A DNA stretch of 64,000 nt from Spirochaetia bacterium UBA2205 (GCA_002328585.1 DCUV01000014.1:31893-95892), one strand, 5' to 3'. Counted from the first letter of the stretch, positions 33 to 9,823 are shown. Program-made: numbers and translations. The notes: generated from the letters alone by a model not told the origin.

Positions 33-665
33 TTGCTGAGATTAATTGTTTATCAAGAAACAGCACATTTCCGTATCGCTACTATTGGTAATCCTTATTT
101 GACTTATTTACTTCCCCCACCGTCTACTATCTATGGCTTCTTGAGAAAAGTAACTAACTATAAAAGCATAAATTATCAAAACACAAAACTGTCAATTCAA
201 GGAATATATGAAAGTACTTCCTTAGAAAAGGAAAGATTAACTCTTGAAAATGAAAGAGGATTAAAAACAAACATTATACCAATCCAAAAATTGCATAGTT
301 CAACATGGATAATTCATATTGATTCAGTATATGATAAGGAAATAAAAGAAGGATTAGATAACTATGCAGGAATTTTACGATTAGGACGGGTTGAGGATTT
401 AATTATAGATTTTTCTTTAGAAGAAGTAACAGTTTCAAATAATGATTGCAACAATATTGACACAAAATATTTCATATATAAAAAATGGGAGCAGGGTAAA
501 GATTTTAAAGGTCAACTTTTTAGTATGTTTATAGATAGTGAAGTAGATGAGAAGTTAAAAATAACTAGATATAAGACAACCCAATTAATATATTCTTCTG
601 TTTATAGTTCTCTTGATGAAATAAAATGTTCAGATGGGAGATATTTAGTATCATGGATACCTTAA
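33..665 (+). CDS. cas5: CRISPR-associated Cas5 (type I-B-like)
   Basis: N-terminal RAMP motif 'AHFR...TYLLPPPSTIYGFL'; TTG start after a GGAGGAGG RBS; directly upstream of cas3. Confidence 0.9.
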   Translation: MLRLIVYQETAHFRIATIGNPYLTYLLPPPSTIYGFLRKVTNYKSINYQNTKLSIQGIYESTSLEKERLTLENERGLKTNIIPIQKLHSSTWIIHIDSVYDKEIKEGLDNYAGILRLGRVEDLIIDFSLEEVTVSNNDCNNIDTKYFIYKKWEQGKDFKGQLFSMFIDSEVDEKLKITRYKTTQLIYSSVYSSLDEIKCSDGRYLVSWIP

Positions 666-2968
666 ATTTTGAAATCATAAAAGATCAAATATTTAAAAAT
701 CTTCGGTTCGATAAATATTTGGCTAAGTATGATAAGACATATAAAACAAGTACCAGTATAGAAGACCATGTTGAAGACTTGCTTCATGAGCTATATAACT
801 TTGTATCAAAATATCCAGACGTTATAAAAACTACTGATGAGATGTTGTTATTAAAATTAGCCATTTTGTTTCATGACGCTGGAAAGATAAACACATTGTT
901 TCAAAAGAAATTAACTGAGAATAGAAAAGATGATGTAATACCCCATAATTGTTTATCACCTTTGTTTCTAAAGTCAGTCGACAAATTGGGTGAAGATAAA
1001 CTTTCTTTGTTAACTTATGTAATAATCAACCATCATAAAAGAGGTTCAAATTATTTTTCAAATGAAAGCTATGGTGTAAATCTTTTGATTAAACAAATAA
1101 AAGAAAGTCAAAAAGATTTTTTCTACAAATCTGAATTTGCTGAAGAAATATTAGAAAAGTACAGAGTTCGGCTTTTAAATTCCATGAAAAATAGAAAGTC
1201 AAAAGAATATATAACGTCCGCTGGTCTTCTTATTCGCCTTGACCATGCTGCTTCTGGTGGATTAGAGGTTGAAGAAGAACCAATTAAAGATGATAGAAAA
1301 GATCTTCTTTTTTCGTTTTTTAAAAGAAAAAATAAGACAACAAAACTTAGACCATTTCAAGAAAGATATGGAATAAATGAGAAGAAAAATTATCAATGTG
1401 TAGTAGCAGACACAGGTCTTGGAAAAACAGGGCTCTCTATATTATGGAGCAATAGAAAAAAATTTTATATTTTACCAAATAGAGCATCCGTTAATGCTAT
1501 GTTTAATACTTTAAAAGAAATATATGGTGAAGATAAAGTTGGATTATTACATTCTACGGCATTGTTTAATTTAATTCAAGATAGTGAAGATGATACTTTT
1601 ATACTAAAAGAATATGATCAGACTCGTGTTCTATCAAAACCAGTAACAGTATGTACAGCGGACCAATTATTTACTGCTGCTTTTAATATGCCGGGATATG
1701 AAAAGATATATGCAACCTTATCTTATTCTGATGTAATAATAGATGAGATTCAGGCTTTTCAACCACAACAGATTATTCCAATATTAAAGCAAATTAAGGA
1801 AACTAAAGAGATTGGTGCTAATTACCTTATTATTACCGCTACTTTGCCATCTATTGTAACAAATAGATTAAAGGAATATGGATTTGATATAATAGAAAAT
1901 GATGATTGCACTATAGATAATATAAAACGACATAAAATTAAAATAGAAAAAGGTAAAACTATAGAAGACTTAAATAAAGAAATTGTTGGAAATGCTACAT
2001 CAGGTAAAAAAGTTTTAATTATTGTTAACACAGTTAAAAAAGCTCAGGAAATGTATATCAATATAAACAACACAATCAAAGAATATGGAGTCAATTTTAT
2101 CGAAATAAATATTCTCCATAGTAGATATATATGGAAAGATAGACAGTTAAAAGAGAAAGCAATCATTGATGAATGTGAACAGGATAATAACTTCAACTAT
2201 AAAAAACAAAATGGTTCAATATGGATAACTACACAATTAGTTGAAGCTTCTCTGGATATTGATTTTGATTACTTATTTACAGAAGCATCAACAGCAGATT
2301 CTATTATTCAAAGGATGGGCAGAGTCTGGAGACATAGAAATATTGATTATAATGGGGATGAAAATATAATTATAGCTACTGCTATAAAAGATACTATTTA
2401 TGAGAAAATATTAGTAGAAAAGACAATCGATATGATTGAAAATAGCATAAAGAATAATGATACTATTTTAACTTCATCAGAAAAAAGGAGAATAGTAAAC
2501 GAGTTATATTCAGAAGAAAATCTTAAACAATGGAACTCAGAGTATATAGAAGAGTGGAATAAATTTGAAAAACAAATATACAGTGGTTGGGATTTTATTT
2601 TAGAAGAGAATTCACAAAGAGCATTTAGAGATGTAATGAGTATTGATCTGATACCCGCAATTTATAAAGAGGATGTTGAAAAAAGTTATAAAAAGCTTTT
2701 AAATTTAAGAAATGAAAAGAATTTAGACGGAAAAGTCAAAAGATTGCAAAGATTACAAATTTTAAAAGAAATTCAGAACTATAAGGTTCCCGTTCCACTA
2801 TATTTACTAAATCCTAATGTTAGTAGAAAACTTATTAATACTTCCCAGCCAATTGAATGGATTGATAAAGGATATGGAATAGGTATTTTGCATGATTATT
2901 ATAAGTATGATCAAATTTTAGGTTTAACATGTAAAGGCATAAAGGTTGAGGATGAAATCATTATTTAG
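653..2968 (+). CDS. cas3: CRISPR-associated helicase/nuclease Cas3 (HD + SF2 helicase)
   Basis: HD motif FHDAGK; helicase motifs DTGLGKT, DEIQ, TAT, LHSR, TQLVEASLDIDFD, QRMGRVWR. The ORF track starts at 626; ATG 653, overlapping the end of cas5, is more likely. Confidence 0.95.
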   Translation: MDTLNFEIIKDQIFKNLRFDKYLAKYDKTYKTSTSIEDHVEDLLHELYNFVSKYPDVIKTTDEMLLLKLAILFHDAGKINTLFQKKLTENRKDDVIPHNCLSPLFLKSVDKLGEDKLSLLTYVIINHHKRGSNYFSNESYGVNLLIKQIKESQKDFFYKSEFAEEILEKYRVRLLNSMKNRKSKEYITSAGLLIRLDHAASGGLEVEEEPIKDDRKDLLFSFFKRKNKTTKLRPFQERYGINEKKNYQCVVADTGLGKTGLSILWSNRKKFYILPNRASVNAMFNTLKEIYGEDKVGLLHSTALFNLIQDSEDDTFILKEYDQTRVLSKPVTVCTADQLFTAAFNMPGYEKIYATLSYSDVIIDEIQAFQPQQIIPILKQIKETKEIGANYLIITATLPSIVTNRLKEYGFDIIENDDCTIDNIKRHKIKIEKGKTIEDLNKEIVGNATSGKKVLIIVNTVKKAQEMYININNTIKEYGVNFIEINILHSRYIWKDRQLKEKAIIDECEQDNNFNYKKQNGSIWITTQLVEASLDIDFDYLFTEASTADSIIQRMGRVWRHRNIDYNGDENIIIATAIKDTIYEKILVEKTIDMIENSIKNNDTILTSSEKRRIVNELYSEENLKQWNSEYIEEWNKFEKQIYSGWDFILEENSQRAFRDVMSIDLIPAIYKEDVEKSYKKLLNLRNEKNLDGKVKRLQRLQILKEIQNYKVPVPLYLLNPNVSRKLINTSQPIEWIDKGYGIGILHDYYKYDQILGLTCKGIKVEDEIII

Positions 2969-3094
2969 ATATTTTCAATTTTTAAAACACTATCTTAATA
3001 TTTTCATCCTAATTATCACAACTGTGCTATACATTAGGAGTAACTATCGCATGCCACGTAACTCAACATTGATATTGATTATCTTATCAATGTA

Positions 3095-3499
3095 ATGCAG
3101 ATGCATGATAGGTTGAATGAATACTATATTGACCTTGAAACAGGTAAAATAGTTTGTAATGAAGAATTACCTGATGATTATAATCTTAGTGAAGATGATT
3201 TGTTGTCTGAAGATGTATCTATTGATTATGAATCTGATCGTTATTTATGGATTCCCTTTTTTGAATCAAGCAAAGCATATAGGTTTATGGAAGATTTTAT
3301 ATATGAATTAGAGAATGAAGAGGCGCGTAAAAAAATAGTATATGCAATACAGGGTAAAAAACCCTTTAGGAGATTTAAAGATGCGCTACAGGCGTTTCCA
3401 GATATTGAAAAACAGTGGTATGGTTTTGAAGAAAAAAGGATGAAAGAGTATATCGTAGAGTGGTTACATGAATATGATATTGCAATTGAAAGCTCATAA
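3095..3499 (+). CDS. UPF0158-family protein, with an apparent 1-nt frameshift near the N-terminus
   Basis: Pattern YYIDLETGKI...YRFMEDFI...AIQGKKPFRRFKDAL...W matches my recollection of UPF0158. An AGGAG RBS and ATG at 3051 are out of frame with the body. Confidence 0.7.
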   Translation: MQMHDRLNEYYIDLETGKIVCNEELPDDYNLSEDDLLSEDVSIDYESDRYLWIPFFESSKAYRFMEDFIYELENEEARKKIVYAIQGKKPFRRFKDALQAFPDIEKQWYGFEEKRMKEYIVEWLHEYDIAIESS

Positions 3500-3607
3500 T
3501 TATTTTAATTGGTTGTGTATATATGAACATTTTTTTGTACATTATACTGTACCATATAAATTACGATATTTTGTTTACAGCTACATTAATCGATCAAGGG
3601 TAAATAT

Positions 3608-4501
3608 ATGATAAACAACGCACTTAAAGAAAGAATGGAAGCACTGCTAAACAGCAGAGAAGATTGGCCTGTTGATGAACTTCATCAAGAGCTGGAAAAA
3701 ATTGTCGATGAAATGAATAAAAAACCATTAGATAATTTTGAAGGATTTTCTCCTGCAGATATGCACTATATACTTTATACTCCGTTTCATGAAAAATGCC
3801 CTATTGGTATAAATACTGATATTTCCAAAGATTTTTTACTACAGCATTCACCCTTATTGAAGTTAGCAGTATATATTATGGAAAAAATTAGCGCAGAAGG
3901 TCCTATGCCATTAACATCTAAAGGTAATCTTAAGGTAAGCTTTATTAAAGAATTGTATAATCTTGGGATTTATTATGGTTATGATAGGGACAGTTTTGAA
4001 AAACGTCCTTACCAGAGTAACTGGAATTTTCTTGAGGCTGTTATGCTTACTTGTATTATCGCCGGTGTTTTGAAAAAAATAAAAGGAATACTTGATATTA
4101 CAAAAAAAGGTAACGCATTATTGAAGGACAATGGTTCGTCGCTCTTTAAGGTATTGTTTATAGCTTATACAATTAAATTAAACTGGGGGTATTTTGATTT
4201 TTTTGAGGATGATGATTGTGGCCAACTTGGATTTTTGTGGACATTATGGATTCTTAAAAAATATGGTTTTACGCCTAAACCAGCCAGTTTTTATGCGCAA
4301 AAATATTTAACAGCGTTTCCAATATTTATTAACCAGCAGAATAACATGCATTTTGCGGATGCCTGTTTTACAGTTCGTTTTATGGCTCGTTTTTGTAGTT
4401 ATTTTGGTTTTATTGCCAGTGATAATAATGACAATATGGCATTATTTTTAAAAGATCCTGAAATTGTTAGTACACCACTTTTGAATGCATTTATCAAATA
4501 G
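3608..4501 (+). CDS. Hypothetical protein between cas3 and cas4
   Basis: 297-aa ORF with coding-like composition; no motif I can name. Confidence 0.7.
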   Translation: MINNALKERMEALLNSREDWPVDELHQELEKIVDEMNKKPLDNFEGFSPADMHYILYTPFHEKCPIGINTDISKDFLLQHSPLLKLAVYIMEKISAEGPMPLTSKGNLKVSFIKELYNLGIYYGYDRDSFEKRPYQSNWNFLEAVMLTCIIAGVLKKIKGILDITKKGNALLKDNGSSLFKVLFIAYTIKLNWGYFDFFEDDDCGQLGFLWTLWILKKYGFTPKPASFYAQKYLTAFPIFINQQNNMHFADACFTVRFMARFCSYFGFIASDNNDNMALFLKDPEIVSTPLLNAFIK

Positions 4502-4553
4502 TTATGGTTAATTCTTTTATATAAAGTTTATGCTTAATAATCAAATATATTTA

Positions 4554-4583
4554 TTGCATTAATAGTGCCATGTATTTTATAAT
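4554..4583 (+). promoter_or_regulatory. Candidate sigma70 promoter for cas4-cas1-cas2
   Basis: TTGCAT-N18-TATAAT, 9 nt upstream of the cas4 ATG; the AT-rich context makes a chance match possible. Confidence 0.4.
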
Positions 4584-4592
4584 TTAAGGAAT

Positions 4593-5096
4593 ATGTATAG
4601 TAATATAACACCTGTAATTACTGGTACTCAAATAGCTTATTATATCATCTGCCATAGAAAACTATGGTTATTTAACAAGAATATTTCATTGGAACATACA
4701 AGTGAACTTGTTGAGATTGGTAAACTAATTCATGAAGCATCGTATACTAGAAAAAGAAAAGAAATTAATTTAGAAGGCATTAAAATTGATTTACTAGAAG
4801 CAAAAAGAGGAATTATCCATGAAGTAAAAAAGTCGAAAGCATTGGAAGAATCTCATGCATGGCAATTGAAGTATTACATTTATTATTGCAAGCAAATGGG
4901 TATTGAAGTGGAAGGGATCATTGATTATCCTAAATTGCGAAGAAGAGAAAAAATTAGCCTTAGTATGGAAGATGAAGAAAAAATAAAAAATATTCTTAAT
5001 GCAATTTATGTACTAATGGATAATGATACCATTCCATCAGTCATAAACAAACCGTACTGCAAAAAATGTAGCTACTATGAATTTTGCTATTGTTAG
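4593..5096 (+). CDS. cas4: CRISPR-associated Cas4
   Basis: YYIICHRKLW; RecB-like KIDLL...HEVKKS; C-terminal CKKCSYYEFC Fe-S cysteines. Confidence 0.95.
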   Translation: MYSNITPVITGTQIAYYIICHRKLWLFNKNISLEHTSELVEIGKLIHEASYTRKRKEINLEGIKIDLLEAKRGIIHEVKKSKALEESHAWQLKYYIYYCKQMGIEVEGIIDYPKLRRREKISLSMEDEEKIKNILNAIYVLMDNDTIPSVINKPYCKKCSYYEFCYC

Positions 5097-5104
5097 GTAT
5101 TACC

Positions 5105-6082
5105 ATGAAGGATTACTACATATTTAAAAGCGGGCGCATTAGCCGCAAGGATAATTCCATAGTGCTTGAAACCAATGATGGTAATATCTTTATACCCATT
5201 AATGATATTGATAGCCTTTGCTTTTTTGGCGAGATTGATATAAATACAAAAGCAATTAATTTTTTAGCACAGCAGCAGGTTGTTGTACACTTTTTTAATT
5301 ACTATGGATGGTATACCGGCAGTTTTTATCCCCGCGAATTTTTGCTATCGGGTGATGTACTGGTGGCTCAGGTAAAGGCGTATCTTGACATGCACAGCAG
5401 AACATATATTGCACGGCAGTTTGTGCAGGGTGCAATTCACGGTTTTATAACCAATATAAAGCGGTATCCTGATGTTGGCGATGCGGCAGTGGATACATTA
5501 CAACAGTACATCAATGCAACTGAAGAGCAATCCAATGTACTATCGCTCATGGGTATTGAAGGAAATGCGCATGAATTATATTATAGCACGTTCCCTGTCA
5601 TAATAAAGCAGCCAATAGAATTTGAAAAAAGGGTAAAACATCCGCCCAACAATATGATGAATGCATTGATATCGTTTTGCAATAGCCTTGTTTATACGCA
5701 TGTAATCAAAGAACTGTATAAAACACAGCTTAACCCAACTGTTAGCTATTTGCATGAGCCATCAAACAGGCGGTTTTCACTTTCACTTGACGTATCAGAA
5801 ATTTTTAAACCAATATACGCAGACCGTGTTATCTTTGACTTGTTAAATAATAACATGATAACCCAAAAACATTTTGACAAAGATTTAAATTACTGTTATT
5901 TAAAAGAGGATGGGCGCAAGATTGTGGTTAAAGCTTTTGACGATAAGATTAATACAACGGTTATGCATAAAAAGTTAAAACGCAATGTAAGCTATCAAAA
6001 GATGATACGCCTTGAATTGTATAAGCTTATTAAACATCTATTAAATGAAGAGCAGTATCAAAGTTTGCGGATATGGTGGTAA
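5105..6082 (+). CDS. cas1: CRISPR-associated Cas1 (type I-B-like)
   Basis: GRISRKDNSI, LMGIEG, NALISF, SYLHEP, SLDVSEIFKP motifs; ATG 5105 preferred over the track start at 5084. Confidence 0.95.
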   Translation: MKDYYIFKSGRISRKDNSIVLETNDGNIFIPINDIDSLCFFGEIDINTKAINFLAQQQVVVHFFNYYGWYTGSFYPREFLLSGDVLVAQVKAYLDMHSRTYIARQFVQGAIHGFITNIKRYPDVGDAAVDTLQQYINATEEQSNVLSLMGIEGNAHELYYSTFPVIIKQPIEFEKRVKHPPNNMMNALISFCNSLVYTHVIKELYKTQLNPTVSYLHEPSNRRFSLSLDVSEIFKPIYADRVIFDLLNNNMITQKHFDKDLNYCYLKEDGRKIVVKAFDDKINTTVMHKKLKRNVSYQKMIRLELYKLIKHLLNEEQYQSLRIWW

Positions 6083-6166
6083 GATAGTCATTATACAATA
6101 GTAGGTAACCAGGATGCATGGAATGGATAAAAGAGATTACAAAATGACCAGAACTGCAATAAAAGT

Positions 6167-6260
6167 TGTTCCCATTATTAAAAATGTATTTAAAGAAGGT
6201 ATACTATATGAATAATATATTTAAAAAAATTGTTGGGGCGATAGTTACTGGACATTAAAA
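6167..6260 (+). other. Candidate degenerate repeat/36-nt/degenerate repeat unit between cas1 and cas2
   Basis: 6167-6195 matches the array repeat at 15/29 and ends in the exact ATTTAAAG; 36 nt follow; 6232-6260 matches at 16/29 ungapped. Confidence 0.4.
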
Positions 6261-6285
6261 AATTGATGGATAACAGTGTAATGCC

Positions 6286-6567
6286 ATGTATGTAATCCTT
6301 GTATACGACATCTCAACAGTAACATCAAGTGGACGGAAGCGATTGCCAAAAGTAATGAAAAAATGCCGACAGTACCTTAGACATACGCAAAAGTCAGTAT
6401 TTGAAGGTGAGATAACCGAAGCAAAGCTGTATGCATTAAAACAGGAGATTGCAAAGCTTATAGATGACAAAGAGGACTATGTGGTTGTATACCAATTACC
6501 ACAAAAAACAGTACTCGACCGTGAAAATATAGGGATAGATTTTGACCCGACTGAACGAATCATATAA
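6286..6567 (+). CDS. cas2: CRISPR-associated Cas2
   Basis: MYVILVYDI...QKSVFEGEIT motif; 93 aa; follows cas1. Confidence 0.95.
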   Translation: MYVILVYDISTVTSSGRKRLPKVMKKCRQYLRHTQKSVFEGEITEAKLYALKQEIAKLIDDKEDYVVVYQLPQKTVLDRENIGIDFDPTERII

Positions 6568-6706
6568 AAAAAGCTTGATGTGATGAATACTTGCTGATAA
6601 AAAGTACCAAATAAGCAAAAAAGCACTACCGGAGGTTCGAGAAACAGCAAGTTTGGAAATGATACGTATTTTTTAATAATTGATTATAATAGGCTTTTTT
6701 CAACGG
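6568..6706 (+). promoter_or_regulatory. CRISPR leader
   Basis: AT-rich non-coding 139 bp between the cas2 stop and the first repeat. Confidence 0.7.
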
Positions 6707-6989
6707 GTTTGAGCTTCCAATAGTGGGATTTAAAGAAAATTTGTTTTTGAATATCCTTTTGGTAACTAAGGTGTTTGAGCTTCCAATAGTGGGATTTAAA
6801 GATGTATCAGCAAGGAATAAATAGGCAATGGATAAAGTTTGAGCTTCCAATAGTGGGATTTAAAGCAGTAAAAAGTATCAATGACAAGACTGGTGTTGCA
6901 GGTTTGAGCTTCCAATAGTGGGATTTAAAGATATATTCTATTTACATGCTGCCCGTTCTACCGCACGTTTGAGCTTCCAATAGTGGGAT

Positions 6990-7188
6990 GTAGCAGTTAT
7001 AAGGTTTATAAAGTTGAAAGTTTATAAAGTTAAAGGATGGTGAAGCGCCTGGGTGGTTACAATACATTGATTGCGATTACACAATAACAGTGTTTTACCG
7101 GGGATGTGACAATATAGTACGAAGAACTTATTATTTGTTTTCACAATAACTTTGAACATTATAACATTACGAACTTTGAACTGTTACC
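6990..7188 (+). mobile_element. 199-bp gene-less element, copy 1
   Basis: 43-bp left arm, 107-bp core, 49-bp right arm; preceded by repeat nt 1-23 and followed by a full repeat. Confidence 0.75.
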
Positions 7189-7671
7189 GTTTGAGCTTCC
7201 AATAGTGGGATTTAAAGAACTCACCAAGCTCATAAAGACTATAATCCTCAACAGTTTGAGCTTCCAATAGTGGGATTTAAAGAACTTTGTCTTTGTTGAT
7301 TTAAACCTACTTGAGATCGGTTTGAGCTTCCAATAGTGGGATTTAAAGATATATCTTGTTAAACATGGGAGTACATTAGAGCCAGTTTGAGCTTCCAATA
7401 GTGGGATTTAAAGTCAGATAGCCAGTCACGTAATTAATCGTGAATCTATTAAGTTTGAGCTTCCAATAGTGGGATTTAAAGTTGCTTGTAAATTTCCAAC
7501 GAATCCACTTTGCACACGTTTGAGCTTCCAATAGTGGGATTTAAAGTACTCATCGATAAAACTTTTTATATCTTCACCAGCTGTTTGAGCTTCCAATAGT
7601 GGGATTTAAAGATATAGCGGGATGACACCATTTTGGAGGTAGAAAAGCGTTTGAGCTTCCAATAGTGGGAT

Positions 7672-7870
7672 GTAGCAGTTATAACGTTTATAAAGTTGAA
7701 AGTTTATAAAGTTAAAGGATGGTGAAGCGCCTGGGTGGTTACAATACATTGATTGCGATTACACAATAACAGTGTTTTACCGGGGATGTGACAATATAGT
7801 ACGAAGAACTTATTATTTGTTTTCACAATAACTTTGAACATTATAACATTACGAACTTTGAACTGTTACC
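7672..7870 (+). mobile_element. 199-bp gene-less element, copy 2
   Basis: Identical to copy 1 except one G>C in the left arm. Confidence 0.75.
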
Positions 7871-7893
7871 GTTTGAGCTTCCAATAGTGGGAT

Positions 7894-8363
7894 GTAGCAG
7901 TTATAACGTTTATAAAGTTGAAAGTTTATAAAGTTATACAGTTTTATACGATAATTGTATTATGAAAATAAATAAATTTGAAGATATAAAATCATGGCAG
8001 TTAGCTGAAGTCTTAACGTTAGAGGTGTATAAGTTTGAATGTAAGACTCAATCTGGAATAGATTTTAGTTTTAAGGATCAAATTCAAAGGGCTTCTGTAT
8101 CTATTATGTCAAACATAGCAGAAGGTTTTGAAAGGGCTACCAATAAAGAATTTACCAGGTTTTTATATGTAGCAAAAGGGAGTTGTGCGGAGGTGAGGTC
8201 GCTCCTTCATGTTGGTAACAAGATTGGTTATATTACACAGTCTCAATATATAGAATTGCTAACACTTTGTGAAGATATTAGCAAAACCCTTTCTGGTTTG
8301 ATCAAGTACCTATCTTCACAATAACTTTGAACATTATAACATTACGAACTTTGAACTGTTACC
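7894..8363 (+). mobile_element. 470-bp element carrying the four-helix-bundle gene
   Basis: Same left arm (7894-7936) and right arm (8315-8363) as the 199-bp copies; the gene's last codons TCA CAA TAA lie inside the right arm. Confidence 0.75.
7962..8324 (+). CDS. Four-helix-bundle protein (TIGR02436 / 23S rRNA-IVP family, Avd-like fold)
   Basis: Family signature FEDIKSWQLA...DQIQRASVSIMSNIAEGFER...EFTRFLYVAKGSCAEVRS. Confidence 0.92.
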   Translation: MKINKFEDIKSWQLAEVLTLEVYKFECKTQSGIDFSFKDQIQRASVSIMSNIAEGFERATNKEFTRFLYVAKGSCAEVRSLLHVGNKIGYITQSQYIELLTLCEDISKTLSGLIKYLSSQ

Positions 8364-8386
8364 GTTTGAGCTTCCAATAGTGGGAT

Positions 8387-8585
8387 GTAGCAGTTATAAG
8401 GTTTATAAAGTTGAAAGTTTATAAAGTTAAAGGATGGTGAAGCGCCTGGGTGGTTACAATACATTGATTGCGTTTACACAATAACAGTGTTTTACCGGGG
8501 ATGTGACTATATAGTACGATGAACTTATTATTTGTTTTCACAATAACTTTGAACATTATAACATTACGAACTTTGAACTGTTACC
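8387..8585 (+). mobile_element. 199-bp gene-less element, copy 3
   Basis: Differs from copy 1 by three A>T changes (8473, 8508, 8520). Confidence 0.75.
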
Positions 8586-8608
8586 GTTTGAGCTTCCAAT
8601 AGTGGGAT

Positions 8609-8639
8609 GTAGCAGTTATAAGGTTTATAAAGTTGAAAG
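8609..8639 (+). mobile_element. Truncated element (first 31 bp of the left arm)
   Basis: GTAGCAGTTATAAGGTTTATAAAGTTGAAAG after repeat nt 1-23, then unrelated sequence. Confidence 0.65.
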
Positions 8640-8822
8640 CGAGGCTGTGAAAATATAGTTTGTAAATTAAAATTCAGTAATGGATGCGTGGACTTGCTTA
8701 TTTTAGAATATTAATGCCCTTGACTTTAGACCTTAAGTAAGATTTACACAATGAATAACAAAAATGAATTGACAAAATATTAGAAAACATACGATTTATA
8801 TAATATATTATATATCTATATT

Positions 8823-9398
8823 ATGAGTCAGGGTAATATCATAATGGTGCCATTTCAAAAGGAAGTATTAATAAATGGGATACTATTTTTTGCAAAAGCG
8901 TATTATAAAAAAACAAAAAAATATCCTGCGCAAATGTATCTCTATAAATTTTTAGCATTTGTTGATTTTGAAAGTGTGCAACAAACGGGAGAACCTGTTT
9001 TTGGGTTACAATATATAGCTATGGAGAAGGGTCCTGTCCCAAAAGAATTATATGATAATCGTGAAAATATAAAAAATGATTTATTTAGATTTGTAAAAAA
9101 GGATAATGCTATATTAATTATTCCTGATAATAGCAAGCAAGTTAACTTTGAATATTTTTCCGAATATGAAATTGATTTATTTAATAAATGGATTGAAATA
9201 ATTGCTGATAGGAAAGTTTTAACTAAAGATATTAGTTTAAGCAGCCATGAAATAAATGCATGGGAAAAAACATATAATAAAAAGCCAAATAGTATCATCA
9301 GTTATAAGGATGTATTTGATATTATACCTGCACAAAAAGAATTATCCCCTGTAGAAGAGCATTTTTTGATTTATTCTTCTATACATAATATTAAATAA
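8823..9398 (+). CDS. Panacea (DUF4065/SocA-like) domain antitoxin
   Basis: LYKFLAFVDF...QYIAMEKGPVPKELY resembles the DUF4065 core. Confidence 0.75.
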   Translation: MSQGNIIMVPFQKEVLINGILFFAKAYYKKTKKYPAQMYLYKFLAFVDFESVQQTGEPVFGLQYIAMEKGPVPKELYDNRENIKNDLFRFVKKDNAILIIPDNSKQVNFEYFSEYEIDLFNKWIEIIADRKVLTKDISLSSHEINAWEKTYNKKPNSIISYKDVFDIIPAQKELSPVEEHFLIYSSIHNIK

Positions 9399-9823
9399 TG
9401 AATATTGAACCGGGAACTGTTCTATATTGGGAAAAATTTGCAAACCCCAATATCGGGAAAGAAATAAAAAATGTTTATATGATATATCTTGGTTGCGATG
9501 ATTTAGCAAATTATACCATATTTACGTATTGCCACCGGTTTACTACGCAAGTACATCACTCTAACTTGATCATTGAATTTAAACAAGCAGAATACCATGA
9601 AATTTTTTCTGAAGACTGTTATCTTAATTTTTCTGAAAGAGTATATGAAATCCCATTAGAATATATACATAATCATAAGGAACAGATAAAATTATTGGGC
9701 AAATTGAAAAAGGATGATTTATATAAAATTCTTAAATGTGTCAATAAATCAAAATATTATAAACCAAAAACTAAAATAGCTGTACGGGATAGTTTTTCAA
9801 AAATAAACATTACTCTTAAATAA
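9398..9823 (+). CDS. Putative toxin with a PemK/MazF-like pattern
   Basis: Translationally coupled to the antitoxin (TAATG overlap); G-x-V-x-W..F...K..YMIYLG...FTT...LGKL..DDLYKI pattern resembles the PemK fold. Confidence 0.5.
   Translation: MNIEPGTVLYWEKFANPNIGKEIKNVYMIYLGCDDLANYTIFTYCHRFTTQVHHSNLIIEFKQAEYHEIFSEDCYLNFSERVYEIPLEYIHNHKEQIKLLGKLKKDDLYKILKCVNKSKYYKPKTKIAVRDSFSKINITLK

Follow-up and report, generated by a model that had tools for sequence, protein, structure and literature searches.

A type I-B CRISPR array of Spirochaetia bacterium UBA2205 holds, among its ordinary spacers, a family of longer inserts, one of which carries the gene for a 120-amino-acid (aa) four-helix-bundle protein. 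The array lies in a 64,000-nucleotide (nt) stretch of DNA (hereafter the window), and all coordinates are counted from the first letter of that stretch. Our analysis indicates that the inserts are probably hairpin-armed cassettes of the kind known as intervening sequences (IVS) of 23S ribosomal RNA (rRNA) genes, that they live as guests in spacer slots of the array, and that the truncated repeats beside them are the junctions of the cassettes and not designed handles. We hold this explanation, taken as a whole, with moderate confidence.

The array occupies 6707..8608 on the plus strand and consists of 11 full repeats, 11 spacers and five truncated repeats. The repeat is 29 nt long (GTTTGAGCTTCCAATAGTGGGATTTAAAG) and the spacers are 35-39 nt; all are on the plus strand, and no copy of the repeat was found elsewhere in the 64-kb window. 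The truncated repeats keep nt 1-23 exactly, after which GTAGCA(G) replaces TTAAAG. Within the array lie one 470-bp gene-bearing cassette, three 199-bp gene-less cassettes and one 31-bp stub, arranged as follows.

6707-7611, plus strand: span of the full repeats, 29 nt each, starting at 6707, 6773, 6837, 6902, 7189, 7254, 7320, 7385, 7453, 7518 and 7583
6967..6989, plus strand: truncated repeat (r23), left junction of gene-less cassette 1
6990..7188, plus strand: gene-less cassette 1, 199 bp, in mid-array, with spacer 4 before it and spacer 5 after it
7649..7671, plus strand: truncated repeat (r23), left junction of gene-less cassette 2
7672..7870, plus strand: gene-less cassette 2, 199 bp, one base different from cassette 1
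7871..7893, plus strand: truncated repeat (r23), left junction of the gene-bearing cassette
7894..8363, plus strand: gene-bearing cassette, 470 bp, with left arm 7894-7936 and right arm 8315-8363
7962..8324, plus strand: gene for the 120-aa four-helix-bundle protein (23S rRNA intervening-sequence protein family; PF05635, TIGR02436)
8364..8386, plus strand: truncated repeat (r23); a predicted Cas6 cut after 8384 closes the 493-nt unit
8387..8585, plus strand: gene-less cassette 3, 199 bp, three bases different from cassette 1
8586-8608, plus strand: last truncated repeat, preceding the stub
8609-8639, plus strand: left-arm stub, 31 bp, followed by the trailer

The 199-bp and 470-bp units have a 43-nt left arm and a 49-nt right arm in common and differ only in the middle, which in the gene-less cassettes is a 107-nt cargo. 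Four AARGTT words make up the left arm and four AACYTT words the right arm, the two pairing over ~37 bp, and the termini form an inverted repeat, GTAGCAGTT ... AACTGTTAC(C). The chance expectation for the arm sequences is 0. The gene lies between two complementary arms of tandem words, as expected of an IVS-type hairpin cassette, and its stop codon falls within the shared right arm. Each cassette stands in place of one spacer and of the final 6 nt of the repeat upstream, and its right end is nt 1 of the next repeat or one base before it. Since a cassette is preceded by nt 1-23 and followed by a repeat that starts from nt 1, none of the 11 real spacers lacks its canonical 5′ or 3′ handle. An initial annotation of the window had suggested that the elements could sit in the array without damaging their neighbours, and the structure supports this, as every neighbouring CRISPR RNA (crRNA) unit is whole.

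The encoded protein matched PF05635 over positions 1-106 of 106 (E 1.2e-33; 115.9 bits against a cut-off of 33.8) and TIGR02436 (E 1.4e-32; 112.1 bits against a cut-off of 24), and thus lies above the curated cut-offs of both families. Comparison with array-embedded relatives gave ratios of nonsynonymous to synonymous substitution (dN/dS) of 0.07-0.22, indicating purifying selection on the gene, which points to a function of the protein and not of an RNA decoy. The gene is in sense orientation with cas1-cas2 and with the repeats in seven of seven array lineages. It lacks a clear Shine-Dalgarno sequence, as had been noted initially; this is ordinary here, only 13 of the window's 36 long open reading frames (ORFs) having one.

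The same arrangement recurs in independent assemblies. The exact protein is encoded on 23 public contigs, and the junctions were read on ten of these, with NCBI, ENA and JGI as sources. The junctions between repeat half and cassette were identical in all ten, which fall into four array lineages without any common spacer; in these lineages the cassettes lie towards the trailer end, and their number and order vary. Unitig-level contigs of eight metagenome DNA runs (hydrocarbon, wastewater, digester and marine) displayed the same junctions, and DNA contigs of the source population confirmed both cassette junctions. In a relative with the same repeat and variant cassettes, the left end reads GCAACAG and the right end meets the repeat without the extra C. 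Beyond these, the layout recurs in six further array lineages with related repeats, the junction lying at repeat nt 23-25 overall; the rows below give the loci concerned.

L129: first 23 nt of the repeat GTTTTAGCTTCCAATTATGGGAT, left junction at nt 25
L132-135: first 23 nt of the repeat GTTTTAGCCGCCAATTGTGGGAT, left junction at nt 24
L140: first 23 nt of the repeat GTTTTAGCCGCCAATTGTGGGAT, left junction at nt 24
L136-138: first 23 nt of the repeat GTTTTAGCTCCCAATTGTGGGAT, left junction at nt 25
L141: first 23 nt of the repeat GTTTAAGCTACCAATAGTGGGAT, left junction at nt 25

In these relative lineages, L129 excepted, the right end of the cassette meets nt 1 of another repeat or of a repeat fragment. 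The array of L140 ends like that of the window, with a truncated repeat, a 22-nt left-arm stub and the trailer, and L141 resembles the window in its mid-array pattern of a gene-less copy, three spacers and a gene copy. The arm words differ by lineage (AAAGTT; GAAAGTC/GACTTTN; GGAAAGTGG). At the protein level, the closest relatives (P0002, P0003, P0005, P0006 and P0009, 61-74% identity), these being the five closest whose genomic context was examined, are all encoded at the trailer end of CRISPR arrays. The gene of an outgroup relative with 62% identity stands between murT and gatD, in the spacer of an operon; it is sense-oriented and enclosed by the same kind of word arms. Sense orientation inside a host transcription unit, as in IVS-type cassettes, is therefore found in all seven array lineages and in the murT-gatD outgroup. 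Judged from these sequences, the association of the cassette with the array is old, and we infer that it has mostly been inherited along with the array.

Could the arrangement be an artefact of assembling a repetitive region? Short-read assemblies do collapse or mis-join repeats, and one contig (L130) is a chimera joined within arm words. Moreover, the near-identical contig L001 has one spacer more and one gene-less unit fewer than the window; this copy-number difference may fit ongoing change, with assembly collapse as the alternative. Against an artefact stand junctions that are identical in at least ten assemblies from three sources, the same junctions in the unitig-level contigs of the eight DNA runs, and the same layout in the six further lineages. 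We consider an artefact highly improbable.

Several loci resemble cassette copies outside a working array. L130 was considered as a gene copy of this sort and rejected, as it is identical to L129 from within the arm words onward. In this Logan contig (L130, 2900-2960), genes of the candidate-phyla-radiation (CPR) type are joined to the L129 cassette cluster inside an AACTTT word array; arm words that are common to different organisms give rise to such chimeric contigs. The left flank of L007, likewise considered as an outside-array site, reads as a decayed repeat, GTTTAG...AATACAGGGAT. L007 (380-450) and L121 (8345-8600) both hold cassette clusters that have no working array upstream and open with a decayed repeat, the cassette-side part of which (AATAGTGGGAT / AATACAGGGAT) is far better kept than the 5′ half; the cluster of L121 is interrupted by an IS3-family element. 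In L006 (1-480), a different array (repeat GTTTATATCCTAACTATGAGAGATTGAAAC) runs directly into GA, ATTTGAGCTTCCAATAGTGGGAT and a gene-less cassette, which is either a fused locus or a mis-join.

The arms also occur far beyond these arrays. An arm 25-mer, ATAAAGTTGAAAGTTTATAAAGTTA, was found exactly in 108 genome stretches of Bacteroidota, Patescibacteria and other phyla (loci in the range L012-L118, for example L016, 1080-1330), mostly in gene-less form; in one case it flanks a PF05635 gene. In two Bacteroidota genomes, the 25-mer lies within a dispersed element of ~200 bp, present in dozens of copies, with the ends TGAGTTCAGTTTAAAAAGT...ACTTTTTAGACCGGACTCA. A third type of cargo (TCATTAATAAACAAGTTTTCCACAGGAGCA..., on an 898-nt RNA contig) follows the same left arm at the position corresponding to window 7938 in runs X33 and X10 (RNA and DNA, digester samples), so the arms carry more than two kinds of cargo. 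The possibility that the gene-less cargo is a relic of the gene was rejected, the similarity being no higher than with shuffles.

We then compared these results with the reading given in the initial annotation, according to which Cas6 cuts the truncated repeats at nt 21/22 and frees 222-nt RNAs and a 493-nt mRNA, which would titrate Cas6/Cas7 or regulate in the manner of RNA anti-CRISPRs (Racr) or CreA. Its description of the letters holds. The stem TTCCA (nt 9-13), the loop ATAG and the stem TGGGA (nt 18-22) all lie within the kept 23 nt, confirming that the hairpin (nt 9-22) is retained, and the unit lengths are right, with 222 nt from 6988, 7670 and 8385 and 493 nt for 7892 to 8384. The statement that only the tail changes is accurate as to nt 1-23, which are exact in all five copies, but not as to the fold: a lower stem of nt 2-7 with nt 23-28, present in the full repeat, is lost in the truncated form. 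The 8-nt tail is ATTTAAAG in full copies and ATGTAGCA(G) in truncated copies. The fold energy is -5.5 kcal/mol for the full repeat and -4.3 kcal/mol for the truncated one. Within the surrounding sequence, formation of the 5-bp hairpin is predicted with a probability of at most 0.10 at all five truncated repeats and of 0 to 0.94 at full repeats; used as a proxy for Cas6 cutting (the method of PMC5741207), this measure is erratic at full repeats and hence weak evidence. Given the low in-context values, the retention of the hairpin holds for the letters and is weak as thermodynamics.

Several observations are in keeping with this reading. The cleavage site and the two bases that follow it are retained, nt 1-23 being kept perfectly in every copy and lineage, and cas6 is present in the operon. 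The cassettes are transcribed, with the gene-less form as the most abundant part in RNA, and the released RNAs would make up 4 of 15 array units. The bases after the retained AU, which would form the new handle, vary in contrast from lineage to lineage: GUAGCA, GCAACA, GAAGCA, UUGUAA, UUGCAU, UGAAAC, UGAGGC and UUGCGA. The swapped tails, written as DNA, are AUGUAGCA, AUGCAACA, AUGAAGCA, AUUUGUAA, AUUUGCAU, AUUGAAAC, AUUGAGGC and AUUUGCGA. There is therefore no conserved alternative handle, which argues against selection of these RNAs as Cascade decoys; by sequence, the swapped tail looks like the end of a cassette and not like a selected handle. As a separate observation, in the Brevinematia lineage (L132, 2813-2845), the sequence following the cut repeat yields AUUGAAAC, which many other type I/III repeats have as their canonical 8-nt handle; the handle of the lineage's own array is AUUUAAAG.

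A role as decoy or crRNA mimic gained no support from two further searches. The cassette RNA and the cas operon had two 11-mers in common against four expected in shuffles, and without complementarity above chance the cassette RNA is unlike CreA/CreR. The arm pattern had 0 matches in 2.9 million viral contigs, and the absence of the arms there speaks against a phage-borne repeat mimic. A viral origin of the cassettes was accordingly dropped: besides the missing arms, the single 19-nt repeat match in a viral contig lies in a coding gene and is at chance level.

RNA contigs from metatranscriptomes bear on both readings. Words of the ORF unit were present in 16 metatranscriptome runs, and RNA contigs covered the cassettes, both ORF and gene-less units, in seven metatranscriptomes. 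Depth in one run was 45 over the gene-less unit, 4.3 over the leader and 3.6 over the ORF; in another it was 21 over the gene-less unit against 2.3 over the ORF. The stretch from cas2 to the trailer yielded no intrinsic terminator, and neither a terminator nor a promoter placed for the ORF was found inside the gene-bearing cassette. Transcription through the cassettes is thus supported. Consistently, the earlier view that the gene is expressed via the array fits its sense orientation in all lineages and the RNA contigs that run over it, most likely by read-through.

The ends of these RNAs fit a Cas6 product less well. In one run, an Illumina adapter was joined to 7003 and coverage was absent over 6932-7001. 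Position 7003, inside the left arm and 15 nt 3′ of the predicted Cas6 cut at 6987/6988, is a frequent RNA fragment end; among the assembled RNA contigs it was the only defined end, the 5′ end expected at 6988 not being the one seen. In another run, a single RNA contig passed uncut through the right arm, the truncated repeat and the left arm at the depth of the cassette body. Taking together the unconserved tails, this uncut contig, the low hairpin probability, the missing complementarity, the encoding of the cassettes by the host and not by viral contigs, and the purifying selection on the gene, we regard Cas6-released decoys as unlikely. Release of cassette RNA by Cas6 is in itself plausible.

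Under the explanation that we prefer, guest cassettes of the IVS kind, the cassette would be transcribed from the leader as part of the pre-crRNA. Its RNA would then be freed by host RNases: Cas6 might cut at nt 21/22, a site that is retained, or RNase III might cut the long stem formed by the arms, or both; the small four-helix-bundle protein would be translated after this release. The cassette RNAs themselves are, we infer, too long and too folded to serve as guides. Within the array, repeat halves would recombine with one another, by unequal crossing-over or gene conversion, and so multiply the copies with no need for a dedicated transposase. A unit flanked by 23 and 29 nt of repeat could yield tandem copies through unequal crossing-over, and break repair in another repeat could produce a mid-array copy with the same junctions. 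For the multiplication of the cassettes, such repeat-homology copying is favoured over active insertion and over capture by Cas1-Cas2.

Active insertion would require a mobile element that targets the CRISPR repeat, enters it near nt 23-25 and thereby makes a long target-site duplication out of the repeat's first 23-25 bp. The observed order of nt 1-23, cassette and nt 1-29 is the expected product of such an element, the cassettes have terminal inverted repeats, and the gene-less and gene-bearing forms have the same ends. Furthermore, the position of copies relative to spacers differs between strains, and TTAC is joined to the repeat through C, A or no base at all, as if by separate events. 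However, neither a transposase nor an integrase is present in the cassettes or next to them, every copy of this lineage found in three collections adjoins a repeat, in some cases a decayed one, and an empty site was not encountered. Plain repeat homology can copy the junction together with the duplication, and a single event could be the ancestor of all lineages. We therefore think it rather unlikely that an active element of this type is at work.

Alternatively, the cassette might be a giant spacer that Cas1-Cas2 took up at the leader-proximal repeat, a misplaced second cut duplicating only 23-25 bp of that repeat. On its left, the duplicated stretch starts precisely at repeat nt 1, just as it does when an ordinary spacer is integrated, and the cassettes sit in spacer slots, the older ones. 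This idea conflicts with the GTGGG ruler of the Haloarcula hispanica type I-B system, in which the end of the repeat duplication lies at a fixed distance from GTGGG and aberrant duplications measure 29-33 bp, not 23 (PMC4872114). Here GTGGG is at nt 17-21, and all 11 ordinary units were duplicated exactly. In addition, relatives of the cassette spread in operon spacers by a route that needs no array. Mis-integration by Cas1-Cas2, judged on the GTGGG ruler, is quite improbable.

A number of points weigh against the guest-cassette explanation. Mid-array copies with spacers on both sides (window 6967-7188, L119, L004 and L141) fit active insertion equally well, and the lack of empty sites counts here as well. 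Fold analysis of the gene-less cassette gave a z-score of only -0.9 for structured RNA, and pairing of the arms was not consistently better on the sense strand; a G-U strand signal in the arms was rejected as evidence, the sense strand folding better in the window copies and the antisense strand in L119. The RNA data are assembled contigs and carry no strand. The excess of gene-less over gene-bearing units, 9-12 fold in RNA against 1.5-6.6 fold in DNA runs, suggests that gene-less cassette RNA accumulates, and is only suggestive.

An Rfam scan of 6400-9000 returned no family, even at E up to 1, and alignment of ten copies of the gene-less cassette gave only two covarying pairs, on which we base no claim. 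Three types of promoter-like site were noted in the cassettes, each by consensus match only. GTGACA-17-TATTAT occurs in the gene-less cassettes on the plus strand at 7106-7134, 7788-7816 and 8503-8531, facing the next repeat, and variant gene-less copies have TTGAAA-17-TACTAT in the same place. The right arms contain an antisense GTAACA-18-TATAAT with an upstream TG, on the minus strand at 7187-7158, 7869-7840, 8362-8333 and 8584-8555.

A more specialised version of the guest-cassette explanation is possible, and we put it forward tentatively. The cassettes may form a lineage specialised on CRISPR arrays, with the pre-crRNA as messenger, Cas6 as the means of mRNA release, and homing-like copying from repeat to repeat that leaves crRNAs intact, co-evolving with type I-B systems in Brevinematia-like spirochaetes.

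The array adjoins the 3′ part of a cas operon, and this set of cas genes, next to regular repeats with unique spacers, places the system in type I-B. The features in the window are as follows.

33..6567, plus strand: 3′ part of the type I-B cas operon, from Pfam and NCBIfam matches and from the operon on the near-identical public contig L128
33-665, plus strand: cas5b
626-2968, plus strand: cas3
3095-3499, plus strand: UPF0158 guest gene, between cas3 and cas4
3608-4501, plus strand: 297-aa guest ORF with a weak Y4jL_N match, between cas3 and cas4
4593-5096, plus strand: cas4
5084-6082, plus strand: cas1
6286-6567, plus strand: cas2
6568..6706, plus strand: CRISPR leader, between cas2 and the first repeat

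As initially stated, cas6 lies outside the window; on L128 it is found upstream in the same operon, together with a gene in the cas8b position and cas7. The order there is cas6, an MNT/HEPN pair, a 532-aa gene in the cas8b position, cas7, cas5b and cas3. The cas6 gene, at 3318-4085 of L128, is the first of the operon, ~4.7 kb 5′ of the window start, and matches TIGR01877 (E 1e-25). Further NCBIfam matches in the operon are TIGR02585 (type I-B Cas7, Cst2/DevR) and TIGR01895 (Cas5b; E 3e-17, below its cut-off); the 532-aa gene had no NCBIfam family match. The leader holds a promoter-like site by consensus scan, TTGGAA-16-AATAAT at 6653-6680, and new spacers are added at the leader end, L001 having one extra spacer at the cas2 side and the remainder in common with the window. 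Two neighbouring gene pairs were also noted. The MNT/HEPN pair (L128, 4082-4764), between cas6 and the cas8b-position gene, is toxin-antitoxin-like. Directly 3′ of the array (8823-9823), a 191-aa gene with a SocA/Panacea antitoxin domain has a stop that overlaps the start of a 141-aa ORF without a family match; the two may be a toxin-antitoxin pair.

CRISPR arrays are usually seen as pure repeat-spacer memory. In several lineages, the arrays described here stably house a protein gene under selection together with its miniatures, bounded by repeat parts. Such arrays offer a natural test case of whether Cas6 or RNase III can turn pre-crRNA into mRNA, and the neighbouring spacers are a dated record of the multiplication of four-helix-bundle cassettes. 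At a practical level, array finders and spacer-based strain typing will mis-split arrays of this kind.

Known systems include the Racr and the solitary repeat units of phages and plasmids (reported by Camara-Wilpert et al. 2023). A cassette RNA resembles them in that it contains a portion of a CRISPR repeat and could engage Cas6 or backbone subunits and yet not form a working guide. Unlike a Racr, which an invader encodes, the cassettes lie in the host's own array beside its cas genes, are 199-470 nt long and strongly folded, and carry a selected protein gene. In type I systems, CreTA and CreR act as crRNA-like regulators, as reported by Li et al. 2021 and Liu et al. 2023. Cre RNAs are crRNA-sized, and their spacer-like portion has partial complementarity to a promoter. 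The cassettes resemble them in that a degenerate repeat beside a type I-B locus would give a crRNA-like transcript with unusual ends; they differ in their segments of 199 or 470 nt, 5-13 times the length of a spacer, and in the absence of excess complementarity.

Miniature inverted-repeat transposable elements (MITEs) and insertion sequence (IS) elements have been found inserted in CRISPR arrays or cas genes (e.g. PMC10359306). The cassettes are like them in having terminal inverted repeats and short non-autonomous copies beside a longer one at a CRISPR locus. In contrast to transposase-driven elements, they have no transposase, disrupt no crRNA unit and occupy the same position within the repeat across lineages; the four-helix-bundle protein is all that the long form encodes, and the flanking duplication is 23-25 nt of repeat.

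The family of the protein has been seen near CRISPR-Cas before. Eighteen 23S_rRNA_IVP genes were reported within cas loci, type I-B included, and co-occurrence with Cas4 and Cas6 genes was noted (Zhang, Doak and Ye 2014, PMC3936711). Those genes lie between cas genes, whereas the gene described here lies inside the repeat-spacer array, is flanked by repeat halves and has miniature derivatives. Our literature search found no description of such genes inside arrays with repeat-bounded junctions and miniatures.

The closest parallel is the rRNA IVS. ORF-bearing IVS occur in 23S rRNA genes of Leptospira and Coxiella (Ralph and McClelland 1993, as cited in PMC3936711), and insertions encoding 23S_rRNA_IVP are present in rRNA genes of CPR bacteria (bioRxiv 10.1101/2024.02.27.582315). 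Like these, the cassettes belong to the PF05635/TIGR02436 family, have a gene between complementary arms, exist in gene-less forms and are inserted in the sense direction in a highly transcribed host sequence; in both cases the host RNA is cut into pieces anyway, so that the insert does little harm. The cassettes differ from rRNA IVS in their host, a CRISPR array, in a left border at repeat nt 23-25 and a right border at nt 1, and in their amplification to several copies in one array, and their excision by RNase III is presumed by analogy. The comparison thereby links the unexplained 23S_rRNA_IVP genes in cas loci with the intervening sequences of rRNA.

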